From Candidatus Saccharimonadota bacterium (GTDB taxonomy: Bacteria > Patescibacteriota > Saccharimonadia > Saccharimonadales > Saccharimonadaceae): DNA of 64,000 nucleotides. The notes under the pieces are model-generated. The model had not been told where the DNA came from. It did no database searches and worked only from the letters and a program-made list of their open reading frames with translations. Shown in pieces: positions 9,177 to 34,445 of the stretch. The translations under genes were made by a program, and so were the position numbers. Location: assembly GCA_027492255.1 (NCBI GenBank), contig JAPUFB010000003.1:13889-77888 (forward strand), given 5' to 3'. Numbering within the stretch: position 1 is the stretch's first letter; each line of letters starts with the position of its first letter.

Positions 9177-10006
9177 TGTCTCGCCTTATAAGATCAACTT
9201 TATGTTCTACGATCATCTTCTGATATTCATTCAATAGCATATGAATTCCTGCCTCAGATGTAGTCCACTCGTCTCGCCTGAGCGCCTCACTGAGATTTTG
9301 CTCATCAGAACTAATCGCAATTGTTTTGATCGAATATGGCGAAAATTTGTACCACTCCATTTTTGCCCGTGCAAGTACATAAGTAGAAGCCACGATAATG
9401 AGTTTTTCGGGATGCCAGTCCATATCATCAAACATATCAAGTGTGCGTTTCACATTATCGGGGAGTGTCACTGCCCGGTCTTCCGTGATAATCGCATCAG
9501 CCGGTACACCTTGTTCCATGGCATAGCGTTTTAGCACTTCAGCTTCAATTGGCAGATGTGGCGCGTAGTATGGCCCACGTCCGCTGATTATTAGTTTTGG
9601 AGCGTATCCATCTTTATAAAGTTGGACCGCTTTTTTAATCCTTGCGTTGCTTTGTGAACCGAATACAAAAATAGCGTCAGCATTTTCAAGCTCATCCTCC
9701 TGGCTTAGTGAGTCAAACAGTTTCGAATAATCATCTTTGTGTGAAAGTATGTATTCACTAAGCGTATCGTTATATTTCGTAGATTCTGACACTAATTGTT
9801 CAATTGGAAGATGCTGATAATCATCAATCCATGTATTATCTGCACCAGCCATATCACCAAGTTCACGATACGCCATGAAAAGATCAGTGTTATTTTTGAG
9901 GAAGTCATAGCGCTCAGCCTTACGCGGTGACTCTGCAGCTAGGATATCAAATAGTTCCTGAGCACCAGGTAATTGCGCACCCGATGTTCTAGGTGATTGA
10001 TTTAAT

Positions 10007-10014
<8 letters not shown>
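9169..10014 (-). CDS. YdcF/DUF218 (ElyC/SanA) family protein
   Basis: AIFVFGSQSNARIKKAVQLYKDGYAPKLIISGRG is the typical DUF218 core. Overlaps both neighbouring genes. Confidence 0.6.
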
Positions 10015-13971
<3,957 letters not shown>

Positions 13972-23245: not shown

Positions 23246-24115
23246 ATGGATCGTCTCAAACAACTTGCTCATAGTCTGAAACCTAGCCCAAAAATGCCCG
23301 TCCTATTTGTGGGGCATGGCAATCCGATGCATGCGATTCTTGACGATGAAATTACACGTAACTGGGCAAAAGTTGGAGGCAATTTGCCAGAGCCGCAAGC
23401 ATTCGTGGTTATTAGTGCACATTGGCAAACCAGAGGCACAAAGATTACCGACGCACCGACACAACCAATCATCTACGATATGTACGGCTTCCCTGATGAG
23501 TTATACCAAGTACAGTACCCCGCCAAGGGTGACCCCGAAATTGCCCGAGAACTCCGTGACGCATTTTTGCACTACGAAGCACAGCTCGATAACACCTGGG
23601 GATTAGACCACGGCACATGGTCAGTTTTGAAATACATGGCGCCGAAAGTAAAGGTACCGGTACTCCAAATCAGTATTGACATGACCCAGTCATTGCCGCA
23701 ACTCGTTGAAATGTTCCGCTTACTGAAGCCTCTGCGCGAAAAAGGTGTAATATTTATCGGCAGCGGCAACCTCGTACATAACCTCGGACGACTCAATTTT
23801 CACGACAATAGTATATTTGACTGGGCAATAGAATTTGACGAAAAAGCGAGCGAACAAATGAGCCTCCATAACCTCGACCTACTCACAAACCCACTCAAGA
23901 TGACGAATGCCGCCAGCCATACGTGCCCCGACTACAAACGAATACGTAACCAGTCATTAATAATTTTTTTCAATGCAATCACATTAGCATTGATGGATTC
24001 AAGAGTTGTAAATGTCATGATACCTCTTATATCAGAACTCCATTCGACCAATCCGCTCGTATCTGGCATCACTGGAGTGCCATTCTTCTCCTCTTTGCGA
24101 CGAGCACCCATATGA
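23246..24115 (+). CDS. LigB-family extradiol dioxygenase (YgiD/DODA-like), C-terminus replaced (probably truncated/decaying)
   Basis: PVLFVGHGNPMHA, VVISAHWQT, IYDMYGFPDELYQVQYPA, GSGNLVHNL. Family similarity stops near codon 228 (ASHTCPDY), exactly where the convergent gene 23932..24324 ends. The last ~60 codons are antisense read-through. Confidence 0.6.
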   Translation: MDRLKQLAHSLKPSPKMPVLFVGHGNPMHAILDDEITRNWAKVGGNLPEPQAFVVISAHWQTRGTKITDAPTQPIIYDMYGFPDELYQVQYPAKGDPEIARELRDAFLHYEAQLDNTWGLDHGTWSVLKYMAPKVKVPVLQISIDMTQSLPQLVEMFRLLKPLREKGVIFIGSGNLVHNLGRLNFHDNSIFDWAIEFDEKASEQMSLHNLDLLTNPLKMTNAASHTCPDYKRIRNQSLIIFFNAITLALMDSRVVNVMIPLISELHSTNPLVSGITGVPFFSSLRRAPI

Positions 24116-24324
24116 AGTATAAGCTTCACCGCCCCTTGTTTGTTCATGAGGTTAAATGTAATCCTGTCTTCACCATCTAGGACATAGCTAGGCGCGTTCC
24201 ATTTGATGCGTTCACTGAGTCGTGGCTCAGTCTTTAGTATCAGGTCCCGTAGTATATCAACTAGTTGTCGTTTATCTATCGGCAAGTCATCCAAAAATTC
24301 GTCTGTCGTTTTGTATTTCTGCAT
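23932..24324 (-). CDS. DUF1801 (YdhG-like) domain protein
   Basis: 130 aa; FLDDLP...ILRDLILKTEPRLSERIKWNAPSY is the DUF1801 pattern. TAAGAT hexamer lies 6 nt before the ATG. Confidence 0.6.
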   Translation of the reverse strand: MQKYKTTDEFLDDLPIDKRQLVDILRDLILKTEPRLSERIKWNAPSYVLDGEDRITFNLMNKQGAVKLILHMGARRKEEKNGTPVMPDTSGLVEWSSDIRGIMTFTTLESINANVIALKKIINDWLRIRL

Positions 24325-25960: not shown

Positions 25961-26620
25961 ATGAGTGATGAGATTGAACTTGATAACGTGTATTATTTTT
26001 CTGTTAAAAAACGCCAACACCCTGAAGTTTTTAATCTAGTCCAGAATGTAATTGAAGATTCAAACCAACACAGTGGAGATAAATTGGAAATTCAGAGAAG
26101 GCTGCGACTTTTGACTACCAGCGAAGGGAATGAGCATTTAAGACAGTGTAGTAACTTTTTAGCTGAAGCTTTAGCCTTTGCGGAAATACATAATAAGGGA
26201 CAGACGCCTCATTGGGTGCCTGTAACTTCTCTGCCAACACCTGATATTAAGTATGAGGCGAGTGGTATGTTTCAACCTGTAGAAGTAAAGCACTTAAATA
26301 GTCCGAGAGAAGAACATGAGGCATTGGCGAGTGGAATGATGTACGGAGGTTCCGTGAACATGGACTATGATGCTGGACTTGTTAGGAAGATAAATGATTT
26401 TATCGTGTCTGCTAAATCAAAGTTCCTTCAATTCAATGCATCTGTTAACGAAACCGAAAGCGAGAAGGGTACTCTGTATCTGTACTTCAGCAAGTCCATC
26501 GATGCTGGTCTGACAGACGGCATAGAATGGCAGAAGACCATGAAAGAAAGAATAGCGGACATAGCAACGCCTTTATGCGGTGATGAAGTTAACTTGATAA
26601 TCGAAGATATAAACGAATAG
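25961..26620 (+). CDS. hypothetical protein with PD-(D/E)xK-like nuclease motif
   Basis: 219 aa; LPTPDIKYEASGMFQPVEVKHL reads as PD...x12...E-V-K. TATACT lies 6 nt before the ATG. Converges on the HEPN-like gene with a 14-nt gap. Confidence 0.45.
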   Translation: MSDEIELDNVYYFSVKKRQHPEVFNLVQNVIEDSNQHSGDKLEIQRRLRLLTTSEGNEHLRQCSNFLAEALAFAEIHNKGQTPHWVPVTSLPTPDIKYEASGMFQPVEVKHLNSPREEHEALASGMMYGGSVNMDYDAGLVRKINDFIVSAKSKFLQFNASVNETESEKGTLYLYFSKSIDAGLTDGIEWQKTMKERIADIATPLCGDEVNLIIEDINE

Positions 26621-26634
26621 TTCGTACAACCGAG

Positions 26635-27090
26635 TTAGTCTCTCCAACTCCACTCATTATGAATTGCTGCATGGGCTCTCTTTAGCAGTCGTACGTACAA
26701 ATCATCGACCATCGAGTTGGCATCATAATGACCAAATGTTCCTACTTTCCCGTATCTTGTTTCTATAACATTTCGGTCCTTGAATTCAGGATACTTATCG
26801 AAAAACTCATTTATCAAATCTCTTGTTACATCGTCTTTGACTATCTCAAGGGCTTTATCTTTGGTTCTACCTAACTCATGGCTGAATTTCTTCATTTGAG
26901 CTGTGGTTGAGTATTGTTTATCTATACAAATTAGTGCCTTCAATAAAAACTCTATAGAAAAACAGAATGCTACATACTTGGCTGTCGTAAATCTAGGTCG
27001 AGGGAGACTCATTCCTTCCGTAGCTAAGTCGTACCACTCCATGCTACGACTTAATAGCGATGCGGGCGTATGGTCATAATCTTTAGACAT
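26635..27090 (-). CDS. HEPN-like domain protein (third gene of orphan operon)
   Basis: 151 aa. Helical pattern AFCFSIEFLLKALICI ... KFSHELGRT ... VIETRYGK matches the classic HEPN layout (ExxLKA, sHxL, RY). 8-nt overlap with the upstream gene. Confidence 0.5.
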   Translation of the reverse strand: MSKDYDHTPASLLSRSMEWYDLATEGMSLPRPRFTTAKYVAFCFSIEFLLKALICIDKQYSTTAQMKKFSHELGRTKDKALEIVKDDVTRDLINEFFDKYPEFKDRNVIETRYGKVGTFGHYDANSMVDDLYVRLLKRAHAAIHNEWSWRD

Positions 27091-28189
27091 AATACTCCTG
27101 GCTGCTGAATAGCTCTTTCACGTATTTATTGAAATTTTCATGGTTAATACCCAAAGTATTACTGCCTGTCTCGAATATATCAAATACAGTTTTGACACTA
27201 TGGTTTTCAAACTCTAGACCATAAACGGGTACAGCAAACATATTTTTATTATCCATTACAAATCCATGCAGTTCGCCGATGAACCTCAGCGCAGATATTT
27301 CTATGCCATGTCTATTTGCATCCCTCGGCACCATTACCCACGGTATCGACTCTTTATCCAGCGCAAAGGATTGCTTATCTGCTTTTACTAATGATTCCTT
27401 CAGTTTATCAATTGCTGGACCCATGTCCCAACTGGCCTGAAAATGCACGTTTACATTGTTGGGATTGAATGAAAACATGAAATCTGATGAGTAGTCATTA
27501 TTCCGAATCATGGCACTCAAAGTCATATCTGAATATCTCGCTAAGTCTAAATCTTCTTCAAACGCTATAGCCATTTTTTCTAATGATTTATGTATTAGCT
27601 TCTTATCGGGAGTAAACACCGAAATTAATATACTTTGGTTCCTAACCAACTTTATAACACGCAGCAGTTCACTTGCAGATGCGTTCACTATATCTTCGAA
27701 ATATAGCCTGCTATTAGGAAAAGTTTTAGCGTCTGACGCAAACGGAATCTCTAATAAGTCAACATCGGCTAGCCCTTTTTGTTTTGAAGAATTAAATCCT
27801 ACTTTGATGTTTTGGTATTTATAAAAACCTCCTACAATGATTTCATTAAGAGACGAAAGCATTGGGCCAGAGTTAGGACTTAATAATCCACGTTGTAACT
27901 CAGATAAGTAATCAGGGTTTGATTTGATTTCATCTTTCAACTTACCTAGTACTGAAGCAGTGAATTTGAAATACCCATAGTCGTCTGCTGGCACACTCTG
28001 CTGCTGATGACTATAGAGATGACCATTGAATTCGTAGCTTGTATTGATAATAAACCTCATCGAAGGATTAGTAACACCAATCAGCTTGTTGGTGTATGTG
28101 CGCCTCATACATTCCTTAATAGCGTTTCTAATAGCCTCATGTCCAAAAACATCAATATATTTCTGAAGACTAATTGCTCTCTTATGCAC
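27083..28189 (-). CDS. hypothetical 368-aa protein (second gene of orphan operon)
   Basis: GTG start sharing one base with the upstream TAG. No family recognised. SLNEIIVGG...GLADVDLLEIPFASDAK could be an E...D...DxK nuclease core (weak). Confidence 0.5.
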   Translation of the reverse strand: MHKRAISLQKYIDVFGHEAIRNAIKECMRRTYTNKLIGVTNPSMRFIINTSYEFNGHLYSHQQQSVPADDYGYFKFTASVLGKLKDEIKSNPDYLSELQRGLLSPNSGPMLSSLNEIIVGGFYKYQNIKVGFNSSKQKGLADVDLLEIPFASDAKTFPNSRLYFEDIVNASASELLRVIKLVRNQSILISVFTPDKKLIHKSLEKMAIAFEEDLDLARYSDMTLSAMIRNNDYSSDFMFSFNPNNVNVHFQASWDMGPAIDKLKESLVKADKQSFALDKESIPWVMVPRDANRHGIEISALRFIGELHGFVMDNKNMFAVPVYGLEFENHSVKTVFDIFETGSNTLGINHENFNKYVKELFSSQEYYV

Positions 28190-29001
28190 TATTTCTTTAC
28201 CTGCATTAATATGTCTGACTTGAATCGTCCATTACCGTAGCTTCTATTCCACATTTCTTTGTTAGAAAAATAGAAGTGGGTTAATAGAACTTCGTTTTCC
28301 TTGGTACCTTGAGCAGTAATAATCTTTTGCATATTTTCAAGCAATGATGAAATCAACATAGATTTAATGATTACTCTTGCATGGTTAAAGGCTAGAGTAT
28401 TCTCGTATATTACGAAGTGTTTGCTATCCTTTTTCTCACGTGTGTAATAAGTTAAAGATGAATCGAATTTTGCCAACGGGAATGACTGACCATCTGAAGT
28501 TCTTACAGTATATACACTTTCATTGGTGTTGCCCCTAACTCTAAAGCCATGTTTATAAGCATTCAAAAACTGAGCATCAAGATTGTAGTCGCTCATCACT
28601 TCGCTAAGTATAGATAAATGCTCATCTAGCTTATTTTGATAATTCTTGATGGATTCTTTTTCGTTAATGCCAAAGGCGTAATGTTCCAGAATCCATTTCT
28701 TGAACTGAAGAGAGTTTTCCGTTTTCTTAACAAAATCCAAAATCTCATCACTGCGAGAGAACATCCCTTCAAGGATAGTATTCTCTCTCCCAGCGACAAT
28801 CATCATATTTATCATTAAGATTTCGCTTAATTGCATGTATGTAGCGTAAAGCTCAATCAGATGCCTTCTTTTTGTTTTGTCGGTTTTGAGCTTTTGTAAT
28901 TTATCGGCAATATGCTCGATTCTTTTAAGCCATCCTGAAAAATCTTGCTGGCTGTAGTATTCATAAAAAAAATCTTGAAGTGCATTGTCTTGGTCGACCA
29001 T
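28189..29001 (-). CDS. hypothetical 270-aa protein (first gene of orphan operon)
   Basis: ORF 28189..29055 (GTG), but GGAGGA (complement of 29012-29017) lies 10 nt before the ATG at 29001 (MVDQDNALQDFF...). No family recognised. Confidence 0.5.
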   Translation of the reverse strand: MVDQDNALQDFFYEYYSQQDFSGWLKRIEHIADKLQKLKTDKTKRRHLIELYATYMQLSEILMINMMIVAGRENTILEGMFSRSDEILDFVKKTENSLQFKKWILEHYAFGINEKESIKNYQNKLDEHLSILSEVMSDYNLDAQFLNAYKHGFRVRGNTNESVYTVRTSDGQSFPLAKFDSSLTYYTREKKDSKHFVIYENTLAFNHARVIIKSMLISSLLENMQKIITAQGTKENEVLLTHFYFSNKEMWNRSYGNGRFKSDILMQVKK

Positions 29002-29175
29002 GACAATATTATCCTCCAATCTAATCTCTTTAGCTACCAAGTATATGTAGCTCACGTCCGAAAAGCCTCACGTGCGGTCTGAGAGGTATCTCGGAGTGTC
29101 TAAGCGCGCGTATCTAAGGACGCTTTTTGCTGTAAAACGGTAAGAAAAATAGCCATATACGATGGAATACTTTCT

Positions 29176-29198: not shown

Positions 29199-29225
29199 AC
29201 CCCGAACGCCGAAGCGTTCGGGCAA

Positions 29226-29290
29226 TCACACCTGGACTATTGATTTCTTTGACGAGGTCCAGGGTTAGAGAATTACAATACATACCAAAC
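29226..29290. repeat. 65-nt repeat (copy A) containing a 20-nt sense copy of tRNA-Gly positions ~40-59
   Basis: tcacacctggactattgatttctttGACGAGGTCCAGGGTTAGAGaattacaatacataccaaa, compared with 33261-33324. Flanked by hairpins at 29203-29224 and 29296-29316. Confidence 0.75.
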
Positions 29291-29522
29291 GTAAAACCCC
29301 AACGACGAGGTTGGGGCATTACATTTGGTGCTCAACGAGCAGAAAGTTGTACACCCATTTAGCCTTGATAGCTTTGCTGTACAGAGCCTGGAAGTACAAC
29401 GGTGGCGTGATATTCTTGCTGTTCCGTATGCCAACTATAAGAGTATGTTAGTGCCTCGCTAGACTTACACACCACGCCATAGTTATGCTTGATAATAAAA
29501 ATATAAAACCTACAATAGCCTT

Positions 29523-30035
29523 ATGGACTACAAACAACAGAGTAACCAAGGCTGTCTCGTCGTAGACTTGATGTACTTATTTGGCATAGAGCCAACCAGA
29601 GACAAGGAACAGGATATTTTGAGTGATGGGCTATTTAGATTGCGTGAGAACTATACGCTAGGCTGTTTACTTGCTTTTCTCGAACGCTACGAAGATAAGT
29701 CAGTAACGCTATACGTTGACAACAAGTACTATCTGGATATTCTGAAACAATGGGTCAAGCATCCACGCATAGAGATGGTGCATAAGAAAAATGACACCAA
29801 GTTGCTAGACACTCTCGACACGCCTTTTATTGTCTACGTCGACAACAATATAACTGATGGCTGGACGCACCTACCTCACTTTATGATGGTTACAAGTGCT
29901 ACAGATAAGTTCTATAGTGTCTTTGACCCTTGGGATGGTAAGACAGTTAGGCTCTCGAAAGATAAACTACTCAACGGAATTGAGCTTTTGCGTACTCACG
30001 TTAAGGTTTGCCCGTTCATTATTCAAGCCAACTAA
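29523..30035 (+). CDS. papain-like cysteine peptidase, C39-like
   Basis: 170 aa. QQSNQGCLVVDLMYLFG (Q-x5-C) and HFMMVTSATDKFYSVFDPW (His ... DP) follow the C39 bacteriocin-processing peptidase pattern. TTGATA-16 nt-TACAAT ends 6 nt before the ATG. Confidence 0.5.
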   Translation: MDYKQQSNQGCLVVDLMYLFGIEPTRDKEQDILSDGLFRLRENYTLGCLLAFLERYEDKSVTLYVDNKYYLDILKQWVKHPRIEMVHKKNDTKLLDTLDTPFIVYVDNNITDGWTHLPHFMMVTSATDKFYSVFDPWDGKTVRLSKDKLLNGIELLRTHVKVCPFIIQAN

Positions 30036-32500: not shown

Positions 32501-32585
32501 GGGTTTGTATTAGGGTTTGTATTAGGGTTAGACCCTAAACAGATTTGTATCAGGGTTTGTATCAGGGTTAGACCCTAAACAGATT
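32501..32585 (+). repeat. two tandem REP-like units: 12-nt direct repeats GGGTTTGTAT(T/C)A followed by hairpin (T)TAGGGT-tag-ACCCTAA(A)CAGATT
   Basis: Unit 1 is 32501-32545 and unit 2 is 32546-32585, immediately 5' of the Y1 transposase gene. Confidence 0.75.
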
Positions 32586-32617: not shown

Positions 32618-33208
32618 ATGCCATCTCGTAATACAGTTCGTCAGTACGATGCTCCAGCATATTATCATGTGTATAATCGCGGTGCGGGCGGAAGCTATAT
32701 TTTTAGAGATGCTCAGGATAAATATAAGTTCCTATCACTCGTACAACGCTATTTGAGTCACGACTCGCAATATGAAAAATATCCTACTTTCGATATCGAG
32801 CTTATTGCCTACTGTGTCATGGGAAACCATTTTCATTTGCTACTATTCCAGGAGCATGACCTTGAAGCAATCACGAAGCTCATGAGGTCGGTCTCGACTT
32901 CTTACTCAATGTATTACAACCTCAAGTACAGGTCTCATGGCCACGTGTTTCAAAGCGTGTTTAAAGCCGCTAGGATAACTAATGAATCATACCTTGCACA
33001 TATTACACGCTATATACACTTAAACCCCGAAACATACCTGACATACAAATGGTCAAGTTTACGCTACTACATGGGCGAGCAGCCGCCGGACTGGGTAAAT
33101 CCAGCAAGATTACTTGATATGACTTCCATACAATACAAGAAATTCCTAGAGGATTATGAGGATCGAAAGAAGCTCTTAAAAGAGGTTAAGGATCAGCTGG
33201 CACTATAG
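32618..33208 (+). CDS. IS200/IS605-family Y1 (HUH) transposase, RAYT-like
   Basis: 196 aa. VMGNHFHLLLFQ (HUH motif), RYIHLNPE (catalytic Tyr helix). TGaTATTCT lies 6 nt before the ATG. Hairpin GGGTC...GACCC (33214-33236) follows the stop. Confidence 0.75.
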   Translation: MPSRNTVRQYDAPAYYHVYNRGAGGSYIFRDAQDKYKFLSLVQRYLSHDSQYEKYPTFDIELIAYCVMGNHFHLLLFQEHDLEAITKLMRSVSTSYSMYYNLKYRSHGHVFQSVFKAARITNESYLAHITRYIHLNPETYLTYKWSSLRYYMGEQPPDWVNPARLLDMTSIQYKKFLEDYEDRKKLLKEVKDQLAL

Positions 33209-33260
33209 CCATGGGTCTAGGTAGCTTGACCCAGAAACCGACGCGTTCGCGTTCGGAGAG

Positions 33261-33324
33261 TCACATTTGGACTATTGTTTTCGTTGACGAGGTCCAGGGT
33301 TAGAGAATCAAATACATACCAAAG
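33261..33324. repeat. 65-nt repeat (copy B); its 20-nt box is a perfect inverted repeat of part of the adjacent tRNA-Gly
   Basis: 33286-33305 (gacgaggtccagggttagag) is the exact reverse complement of 33373-33392 inside the tRNA gene. Confidence 0.8.
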
Positions 33325-33355
33325 AAAAAACCGACCGAATGGTCGATTCTTTCTT

Positions 33356-33432
33356 TGGTGCGGGTACAGGGACTCTAACCCTGGACCTCGTCCTTGGCAA
33401 GGACGCGCTCTAAACAACTGAGCTACACCCGC
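33356..33432 (-). tRNA. tRNA-Gly (anticodon GCC) with non-canonical D-loop/T-loop
   Basis: Acceptor GCGGGTG/TACCCGC, anticodon stem CGTCC/GGACG, loop TTGCCAA, T-arm CAGGG-TTAGAGT-CCCTG. CCA is encoded; 77 nt. D-loop AGTTGTTTA (G18 U19) and T-loop A56 replace G19/C56. Confidence 0.8.
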
Positions 33433-33594: not shown

Positions 33595-33617
33595 CTAAAC
33601 AACTGAGCTACACCCGC
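33595..33617 (-). repeat. duplicate of the first 23 nt of tRNA-Gly
   Basis: ctaaacaactgagctacacccgc is identical to 33410-33432. Confidence 0.8.
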
Positions 33618-34166: not shown

Positions 34167-34235
34167 GCATCAAGTGTACACGAAGTTAAGGGCATGAAAA
34201 GTAAAACACCCTAGGCAAGCTAGAGTGTTTTACTT

Positions 34236-34260
34236 TGGTGGCTCCTCCCAGACTTGAACT
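34236..34260 (-). repeat. displaced copy of the 3' terminal 25 nt of tRNA-Phe
   Basis: tggtggctcctcccagacttgaact is identical to 34370-34394. Followed by its own terminator hairpin at 34201-34233. Confidence 0.8.
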
Positions 34261-34369
34261 AGAGGGACAGAGCCCTCAGCAAAAACCATCGCTCTTCAAG
34301 GCCACGCCTGAAGAGCCTTGTGAATAAGTACCAAAGAAAAAAGACCAGCTCTTACTGATCTTCATTCTT

Positions 34370-34445
34370 TGGTGGCTCCTCCCAGACTTGAACTGGGGAC
34401 ACAAGGCTCTTCAGGCCTCTGCTCTACCAACTGAGCTAAAGAGCC
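34370..34445 (-). tRNA. tRNA-Phe (anticodon GAA)
   Basis: Acceptor GGCTCTT/AGGAGCC, D-loop AGTTGGTA, anticodon loop CTGAAGA, T-loop TTCAAGT. CCA is encoded; 76 nt. TGaTATAAT (complement of 34469-34477) lies 24 nt upstream. Confidence 0.9.

Follow-up and report, generated by a model that had tools for sequence, protein, structure and literature searches.

A candidate defence cassette in a Saccharibacteria genomic island, with a predicted restriction-fold nuclease and a HEPN-like partner

Three overlapping minus-strand genes, called here genes 1, 2 and 3 from the upstream end, lie side by side in the window, a 64,000-nucleotide (nt) stretch from a Candidatus Saccharimonadota bacterium (contig JAPUFB010000003.1, positions 13,889 to 77,888 of the forward strand). 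The reading favoured here, tentatively and at somewhat less than an even chance, is that the locus is an island cassette in which a new restriction-fold DNase, the predicted product of gene 2, is accompanied by a non-canonical HEPN partner, the predicted product of gene 3, making it a candidate defence module. Among its supports are a catalytic signature kept throughout the gene 2 family and the repeated presence of HEPN-type genes beside gene 2 homologues in defence-rich surroundings. A preliminary description of the stretch had taken all three genes as a single unit, a view which comparison with other genomes did not sustain.

The gene 2 family and its predicted nuclease core

Gene 2 belongs to a very small family. 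An exhaustive HMMER profile search of 1.84 billion representative proteins recovered 27 clusters only; 24 full-length homologue clusters are related to gene 2 at 38-59% identity. Full-length members measure about 365-380 amino acids (aa) and share a single architecture, and the clusters that were looked up are all unnamed singletons. The family has been seen mainly in Saccharibacteria and other uncultured genomes so far, and only two GTDB species representatives, both Saccharibacteria, encode a relative. A tiny, single-architecture family of singleton clusters is typical of fast-turnover conflict genes.

Nucleases of the PD-(D/E)xK type carry an acidic residue in the first helix, a (P)D at the start of the second strand and a (D/E)xK in the third, and an alpha-beta-beta-beta-alpha-beta unit bearing E...PD...(D/E)xK is the textbook restriction-endonuclease arrangement. 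This catalytic signature is present across the gene 2 family. Alignment A3 comprises 25 members that share 20-60% identity with gene 2; just eight of its columns are invariant (N41, P42, N91, E116, D142, K155, Q273 and W284), position 153 is D or E in every member, and most of the more distant members have a literal proline before D142, as G-x-P-D at 139-142. The AlphaFold2 model of gene 2, with a predicted local distance difference test (pLDDT) score of 87 and a predicted template modelling score (pTM) of 0.85, places E116 in a helix (107-125) that is followed by a strand at 130-132, a second strand at 143-145 with D142 at its start and a third at 150-156 bearing D153-x-K155. The model continues with a helix at 160-170 and a strand at 186-191, the whole making up a predicted alpha-beta-beta-beta-alpha-beta unit in which the motif residues occupy the expected elements. 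The E...D-x10-DAK core pointed out in the preliminary description is thereby recovered, with E116, D142 and K155 as its fixed residues. From the invariant signature on this predicted scaffold we infer that gene 2 represents an undescribed family of the restriction-endonuclease (REase) fold.

The predicted core is flanked by an N-terminal helical domain, which contains an invariant "TNP", and by a C-terminal alpha/beta domain; neither was matched structurally. No internal duplication was found within gene 2. Two further leads were set aside. A few viral proteins annotated as PD-(D/E)xK appeared in the Foldseek list for gene 2 at E values of about 0.5 and template modelling (TM) scores of about 0.1, and were treated as noise. 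A minimal nucleotidyltransferase, with "NSS...ADVDL" read as G[GS]...DxD, was rejected on two grounds, a spacing too short for that motif and a D144 that distant members do not conserve.

Partners of gene 2 and the alternatives they leave

The surroundings of gene 2 were read in 13 distinct loci (Table 1). Gene 2 is either solitary or found behind at least eight unrelated upstream arrangements, and elsewhere it is also the last gene behind unrelated anti-phage systems. Its homologues adjoin SIR2-HerA, Ppl-like and GmrSD genes, methyltransferases, a type I restriction-modification (R-M) system, Mrr, a PLD nuclease and canonical HEPN genes, and a PADLOC scan of 53 neighbours further returned REase_II, NsnA, PD-T4-2_A, MkoB/C, HEC-05 and many methyltransferases; the defence-island context proposed beforehand from the window finds support in these neighbours. 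All-against-all BLASTP and hhalign comparisons showed the variable upstream partners of gene 2 to be homologous neither to one another nor to gene 1 or gene 3, and tblastn gave no degraded remnant of gene 1 or gene 3 beside other copies of gene 2. By its neighbourhoods, gene 2 behaves as an autonomous, mobile defence-island gene. One relative is split into two open reading frames (ORFs) as a pseudogene, which fits the rapid gain and loss typical of conflict genes. A 69-aa ORF after gene 2 in locus L014 has an N-terminus that resembles gene 3 by eye; tblastn gave no match and it was discarded.

A separate recurrence was noted in one subclade of gene 2. In three loci (L004 at 9445-10176, L007 at 9736-10513, and the P0018 locus) a convergent PLDc_2 (Nuc-like) gene of 160-178 aa lies just downstream of gene 2, accompanied by one or two small ORFs of 67-82 aa. 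Although L004 and L007 have different genes upstream of gene 2, they share 79% identity in their PLDc_2 proteins. The PLDc_2 gene may be a second recurring partner of gene 2 or a shared island boundary.

A HEPN-type gene adjoins gene 2 in seven of the 13 loci, and these genes are of at least three unrelated kinds, so that gene 2 is, as an association, frequently coupled to HEPN genes. Neighbours with profile or fold support are gene 3 (the window and L002, an uncultured Saccharibacteria locus), Ymh (L016/L017) and Cthe_2314 (L019). A motif scan added RNDIIH in L004_348, RNDGGH in L007_278 and, in L015, RSSYIH in the truncated ORF that precedes gene 2; by comparison, RNxxxH occurred in none of the 68 window ORFs of at least 150 aa (19,374 residues). 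The gene 2/gene 3 junction, with an identical 8-nt overlap, is kept in the second Saccharibacteria species of L002, where the two proteins are 59% and 77% identical to those of the window. Furthermore, two Cthe_2314-type proteins, one behind a gene 3 relative in L024 and the other ahead of gene 2 in L019, share 28% identity (1e-56). Both Ymh and Cthe_2314 figure among the HEPN families in which Rx4-6H is conserved (Anantharaman et al. 2013, PMC3710099).

Gene 3 has a family of seven members (six homologue clusters and gene 3 itself), in which E47, K51, H71, R112 and Y113 are invariant. The AlphaFold2 model, built from these seven sequences, is all-helical; the best has a pLDDT of 87 and the other four about 80. 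In Foldseek comparisons with the PDB, HEPN proteins made up seven of nine and 12 of 18 top matches, among them HepT (6m6u, 7bxo, 5yep), ST0689 (1wol) and the sacsin HEPN domain (3o10). It is therefore likely that gene 3 encodes a HEPN-fold, PF05168-like protein, while any activity as a HEPN RNase is putative. In the PF05168-type family the canonical motif is often not followed, a histidine at another place may serve instead, and the genes cluster with R-M operons (PMC3710099). A LAGLIDADG-like identity for gene 3 was rejected, as its matches (PADLOC HEase at E=0.014, I-AniI/I-HjeMI at about 0.4) are not significant and the model is an all-helical bundle with HEPN structural matches. A search of IMG/VR with gene 3 gave no match. 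Beside one relative of gene 3, in L009 (1399-3100), there follow a Peptidase_M78 gene (ImmA/IrrE-like, 4.9e-14) and a DUF4411 gene (1.3e-24), a pair which is a toxin-antitoxin-like or defence-associated module.

Several findings weigh against a cassette built in this way. The whole-chain model of gene 2 found nothing significant in the PDB or BFVD with Foldseek (best E 0.015-0.065, TM below 0.2), and its fold assignment has therefore to be drawn from the motif and the predicted secondary structure. Sequence comparison gave no known member of the PD-(D/E)xK group either: the gene 2 profiles (A1 and A3) had no match among PDB sequences, and the 25 family members had none in Pfam, NCBIfam or PADLOC. 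The HEPN matches of gene 3 have probabilities of 0.9-0.98 and TM scores of 0.45-0.59 at E values of only 0.1-1. A gene 3 relative that is 53% identical (P0030) aligns with 113 of the 117 positions of the Pfam HEPN model PF05168 (E=0.005), its 17.4 bits falling below the gathering cut-off of 22, and gene 3 itself gave no match to that model. Rx4-6H is the catalytic motif that defines active HEPN RNases, and in the gene 3 family no conserved histidine stands 4-6 residues after R112. Foldseek and the sub-threshold PF05168 match lend support to the HEPN call of the preliminary description at the level of the fold, and not at that of the catalytic motif. The HEPN calls for L004_348, L007_278 and L015 are leads from a short motif. 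Gene 3 lies beside gene 2 in only two of the 13 gene 2 loci, and its relatives lack gene 2 in four of six readable contexts; the pair may be a clade-specific juxtaposition. Finally, gene overlaps are frequent in the compact genomes of the candidate phyla radiation (CPR), and tight packing by itself is no proof that genes are functionally linked.

The chief rival reading takes the three genes as neighbours with independent functions, three single-gene modules in which gene 2 is a self-sufficient restriction-like nuclease (for example a modification-dependent, type IV-like enzyme) and genes 1 and 3 are unrelated cargo carried on a shared transcript in a compact genome. We regard this as unlikely, while giving it real weight. 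Gene 2 is monocistronic in the P0018 locus and has nothing upstream in L018, the neighbours differ from one of the three families to the next, and the window has no methyltransferase beside gene 2, which would suit a nuclease needing no cognate methylase. It is less easily squared with HEPN-type genes of unrelated kinds beside gene 2 in seven loci, or with the identical overlap retained in L002 at that degree of protein divergence.

Another rival is a toxin-antitoxin-like pair. The product of gene 3, or the gene 2 nuclease, would here be a toxin neutralised by its overlapping neighbour, serving maintenance of the island and not phage defence. The best structural matches of gene 3 are the HepT toxins of HEPN-MNT systems, genes 2 and 3 are tightly coupled, and the locus is island-borne. 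However, gene 2 is no minimal nucleotidyltransferase: the D-x-D of "ADVDL" is unconserved, and neither gene 1 nor gene 2 has a nucleotidyltransferase match in Pfam. Gene 3 is without Rx4-6H, genes 2 and 3 each occur without the other, and gene 2, at 368 aa, is large for an antitoxin. This makes such a pair improbable.

The packing of the three genes, read in the sequence, is as the preliminary description had it. Base 28189 belongs both to the TAG that ends gene 1 and to the GTG that opens gene 2 (a 1-nt overlap), genes 2 and 3 overlap by 8 nt (27083-27090), and a single GGAGGA precedes gene 1; in addition, the ATG of gene 3 is preceded by AGGAG at 5-6 nt. The 270-aa start of gene 1 fits the N-termini of both its homologues in the alignment, and the GTG start of gene 2 (MHKRA) fits the homologue N-termini M-H-x-R/Q-T. 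Judged from the homologue clusters that exist for them (24 for gene 2, six for gene 3 and two for gene 1), the three genes are genuine and not chance ORFs. A promoter and terminator scan, otherwise uninformative, gave no minus-strand terminator-like site inside the three-gene block; the only noteworthy feature it gave, a hairpin at 29296-29317, lies upstream of the transfer RNA (tRNA) fragment described below. All three proteins are orphans, as had been supposed: searches of Pfam, PADLOC, PHROGs and NCBIfam gave matches at noise level only, none at a curated cut-off or a convincing E-value, and the system models searched, from catalogues no later than 2023 (PADLOC-DB v2.0.0), had no match at E<0.01 to genes 1, 2 and 3, and none to the 25 gene 2 relatives. 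Four neighbour proteins likewise gave only noise-level matches in the same four libraries.

Gene 1 has two distant homologues only (38% and 28% identity) and no match in the PDB. Its alignment with them shows two conserved blocks, ELYATYxQxxEI and F[LI]NAYKHGFRV, the second of which resembles the HEPN "RNxxxHG" with the arginine replaced, a resemblance that is only a lead. In it N147, H151 and G152 would fall at the customary position of the motif, and if gene 1 had a HEPN-like fold the operon would read HEPN-REase-HEPN. One relative comes after a 381-aa protein and the other after one of at least 517 aa; these preceding proteins are mutually unrelated, and genes 2 and 3 are absent from both loci. 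From these travels with other partners, gene 1 appears to be a co-transcribed orphan accessory gene and not an obligate third subunit.

The same comparison bears on the proposal of an obligate three-component defence or abortive-infection system, with gene 1 as sensor, gene 2 as nuclease and gene 3 as HEPN effector. The single Shine-Dalgarno sequence before gene 1, the overlapping stop and start codons and the uninterrupted block would suit it. Yet no other locus among about 20 examined carries all three families, the gene 2/gene 3 pair recurs in one other species, and gene 1 relatives never accompany gene 2 or gene 3; in the closest relative locus (L002), SIR2-HerA occupies the position of gene 1. 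The three-gene unit is accordingly given up as quite improbable.

Island setting and other features of the window

The locus has the signature of an island, with low G+C content (GC) and a tRNA-fragment boundary. The block had been described as the most AT-rich coding part of the window, and GC is indeed at its minimum of 64 one-kb windows in 28001-29000 (0.354), with 0.381 in 27001-28000 against a backbone of about 0.45; the low-GC stretch, from about 24 to 29 kb, holds all three genes. About 120 nt upstream of gene 1 lies a displaced 3' fragment of tRNA-Gly, and a Y1 transposase gene is found beyond it; both had been noticed in the letters and both are borne out by the matches given in Table 1. 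The fragment marks the far end of an insertion of about 4.2 kb between it and the intact tRNA-Gly, which places the three genes on, and directly against, the former 3' flank of that tRNA gene. The same signature is seen in L002, where GC falls from 0.49 to 0.41 immediately after tRNA-Asn.

Within the insertion are the Y1 transposase, an alpha/beta hydrolase, an ORF with borderline likeness to C39 peptidases and several ORFs without annotation. Its ends are additionally flanked by direct repeats of 60 nt (88% identical; 29214-29273 and 33249-33308) and of 22 nt (29277-29298 and 33311-33332). The repeats and the tRNA piece do not follow one another in the same order at both ends of the insertion but are permuted, and the 60-nt repeat carries an inverted copy of about 20 nt from the T-arm region of the tRNA; the arrangement suggests serial or rearranged integrations. 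Nearby, the 5' 23 nt of tRNA-Gly are duplicated exactly at 33595-33617, and the 3' part of tRNA-Phe (34367-34410) is duplicated at 34233-34276 with 84% identity; the tRNA cluster looks like an integration hotspot used repeatedly. At 32504-32583, about 35 nt upstream of the transposase gene, are two tandem 40-nt units, 95% identical, with the palindrome-like GGGTTAGACCCTAA; these could be the subterminal hairpin of the Y1 element or sequences like repetitive extragenic palindromes (REP-like). The 170-aa ORF at 29523-30035 (plus strand) matches the C-terminal part only of the Peptidase_C39 domain, at 22.6 bits against a cut-off of 22; either a fragment or a papain-like protease of divergent sequence may be present here within the islet.

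A setting of this kind raises a non-conflict alternative, in which gene 2 encodes a nuclease of recombination, repair or mobile elements (resolvase-like or a transposition accessory) on integrative elements; serine recombinases, a rolling-circle Rep and a VirB4/TraG-like ATPase do lie within a few kb in some loci, and the locus adjoins a tRNA, yet recombinases are inconsistently placed and absent from the window, no member of the gene 2 family turned up among 72,556 plasmids, 50,697 phage records or IMG/VR, and the immediate neighbours are overwhelmingly defence genes, which leaves this reading highly improbable.

On the other side of the three genes, a convergent 219-aa ORF (25961-26620, plus strand) contains TPDIKYEASGMFQPVEVKH, readable as PD...ExK. 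It had been put forward as a PD-(D/E)xK-like gene, an assignment that was not confirmed: its sole match is PADLOC REase_II at E=0.024, and it has none in the PDB. Further along, a LigB-family ORF (23246-24115, plus strand) overlaps a convergent DUF1801 ORF (23932-24324, minus strand) by 184 nt, and the C-terminal tail of LigB looks like read-through or decayed sequence.

Table 1. Positions of the features in the window, and gene order at loci bearing relatives of gene 2 or gene 3
Feature or locus	Position	Strand	Description
Gene 1	28189-29001 from ATG; alternative GTG at 29055	minus	270 aa; 288 aa from the alternative start; ORF list
Gene 2	27083-28189	minus	368 aa, GTG start; ORF list
Predicted nuclease core of gene 2, residues 105-195	27605-27877	minus	alignment and model
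Gene 2 codon E116	27842-27844	minus	motif
Gene 2 codon D142	27764-27766	minus	motif
Gene 2 codon D153	27731-27733	minus	motif
Gene 2 codon K155	27725-27727	minus	motif
Gene 3	26635-27090	minus	151 aa; ORF list
Shine-Dalgarno-like GGAGGA	29012-29017	minus	10 nt 5' of gene 1 ATG at 29001
Displaced tRNA-Gly 3'-end copy, 27 nt	29175-29201		matches 33355-33381; leading 24 nt exact; chance expectation 0
Y1 (IS200-like) transposase	32618-33208		Pfam Y1_Tnp, 2e-7
Intact tRNA-Gly	33356-33432	minus
Gene 2, window			gene 1, gene 2, gene 3
Gene 2, L002			uncultured Saccharibacteria metagenome-assembled genome, closest relative locus: SIR2 (PADLOC 4e-56) and HerA (3e-168), gene 2, gene 3; same 8-nt overlap
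Gene 2, L006			895-aa PHP/ATPase protein (PADLOC Ppl, 1e-27), gene 2, EcoRI-type methylase, GmrSD
Gene 2, L014			GmrSD, gene 2
Gene 2, L016 (and L017)			helix-turn-helix (HTH)-Ymh protein (Pfam PF09509, 3e-11), 4-nt overlap, gene 2; L017 retains only the tail of a homologous upstream ORF
Gene 2, L019			415-aa Cthe_2314-type HEPN protein (6.6e-7), gene 2
Gene 2, L004			348 aa and 321 aa, gene 2
Gene 2, L007 (and L008)			244 aa and 278 aa, gene 2
Gene 2, L015			truncated upstream ORF, gene 2
Gene 2, P0018 locus			gene 2 on its own, with divergent and convergent genes to either side; the island also holds type I R-M, Mrr, PLDc_2
Gene 2, L018			gene 2, nothing upstream
Gene 2, L013			gene 2 truncated at contig end, then PAS histidine kinase
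Gene 2, L021	7986-9052		relative split into 246-aa and 94-aa ORFs: pseudogene
Gene 3 relative, L023			alone
Gene 3 relative, L024			directly precedes 427-aa Cthe_2314-type protein
Gene 3 relative, L009			between 266-aa ORF and M78-peptidase/DUF4411 pair
Gene 3 relative, further locus			after ORF of at least 244 aa

Proposed model and comparison with described systems

In the cassette reading, the locus would be horizontally acquired island cargo. The product of gene 2 would be a Mg2+-dependent endonuclease of the PD-(D/E)xK fold that cleaves DNA, its N-terminal helical and C-terminal alpha/beta domains presumably serving target recognition or regulation. Gene 3, which appears to be translationally coupled to gene 2, would be its HEPN partner in the window, most likely as a regulator that binds RNA or nucleotides, or as a second effector of non-canonical type, an RNA-directed second prong. 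The pair would then act like the two-pronged defence or abortive-infection arrangements of a restriction nuclease plus HEPN, after the logic of PrrC/EcoprrI and of fused HEPN-REase proteins. A bolder and rather doubtful extension takes the whole gene 2 family as an undescribed anti-phage effector, a restriction-fold DNase with novel flanking domains that acts as a plug-in component alongside interchangeable HEPN RNases, drawn from at least three unrelated families, and on occasion alongside SIR2-HerA or Ppl, in a modular abortive infection directed at both DNA and RNA.

CPR bacteria such as Saccharibacteria are described as rarely carrying CRISPR-Cas (PMC6509639). The phage resistance of these bacteria is poorly understood, and the literature on Saccharibacteria defence yielded nothing on the gene families treated here. 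The gene 2 family is a concrete candidate for a new defence gene: though missing from Pfam, NCBIfam, PHROGs, PADLOC and the PDB, it is found repeatedly among bona fide defence genes and bears a clean nuclease signature. If the proposal is correct, the repeated pairing with unrelated HEPN genes would carry the theme of HEPN with restriction nucleases over to a form that is unfused and swaps its partners. As no structure matches the flanking domains of gene 2, these may hold a new recognition module. Should gene 2 instead be an ordinary stand-alone restriction nuclease, the outcome would be modest, namely one more divergent REase family. Genes for REase-fold nucleases together with HEPN genes in defence islands are known already; what is new is the gene 2 family, its unmatched flanking domains and the swapping of partners.

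SIR2-HerA and Ppl are reportedly among the systems described by Gao et al. in 2020, as modelled in PADLOC. In L002 and L006, respectively, a gene 2 homologue comes straight after them, on the same strand and across short gaps. The window has neither, however, and each is a complete system alone of which gene 2 is not a described component. Stand-alone PD-(D/E)xK enzymes, whether of type II or of type IV such as Mrr, resemble gene 2 in the E...PD...(D/E)xK signature, a size of about 370 aa, extreme divergence, sporadic occurrence and residence in defence islands. Unlike them, gene 2 has no match to Mrr_cat or another REase model in Pfam or PADLOC, and the window contains no cognate methyltransferase.

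For gene 3, the HepT/MntA (HEPN-MNT) systems and the HEPN proteins of PF05168/DUF86 offer the best structural matches and are similarly small and all-helical. The differences are that neither gene 1 nor gene 2 supplies an MNT partner (D142-x-D144 of gene 2 is not conserved as a DxD), that the Rx4-6H is missing, and that the similarity stays at E values of 0.1-1 and below the Pfam gathering cut-off.

The closest parallels to the proposed pair are found among modules that combine HEPN with an REase fold. HEPN domains have been fused independently many times to REase-fold DNases and their linkage to R-M is documented; combinations in R-M-linked or abortive-infection modules include DUF4145-REase, the EC042_2821-type HEPN plus REase, and Ymh "in operon with R-M" (Anantharaman et al. 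2013, PMC3710099). The gene 2 loci share with these a predicted REase-fold DNase coupled genomically to HEPN in defence islands, a coupling which arose repeatedly with different HEPN families, and Ymh and Cthe_2314 HEPN proteins stand directly upstream of gene 2 homologues. They differ in that the two domains are separate genes here, that the gene 2 family matches no described Pfam or PADLOC model and has structurally unmatched N- and C-terminal domains, and that the HEPN protein of the window is without the canonical motif. In PrrC/EcoprrI a latent HEPN anticodon nuclease is held by a type Ic R-M system; the restriction component restrains the HEPN nuclease, which serves as a second line of defence (PMC3710099). 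Gene 3 has neither the ABC-ATPase domain nor the canonical HEPN active site of that nuclease, the window locus is without methylase or specificity subunits, and contact between the products of genes 2 and 3 is putative. Despite these differences, the predicted logic is alike, with a DNA-targeting restriction component coupled to a HEPN partner that would serve as the second prong.

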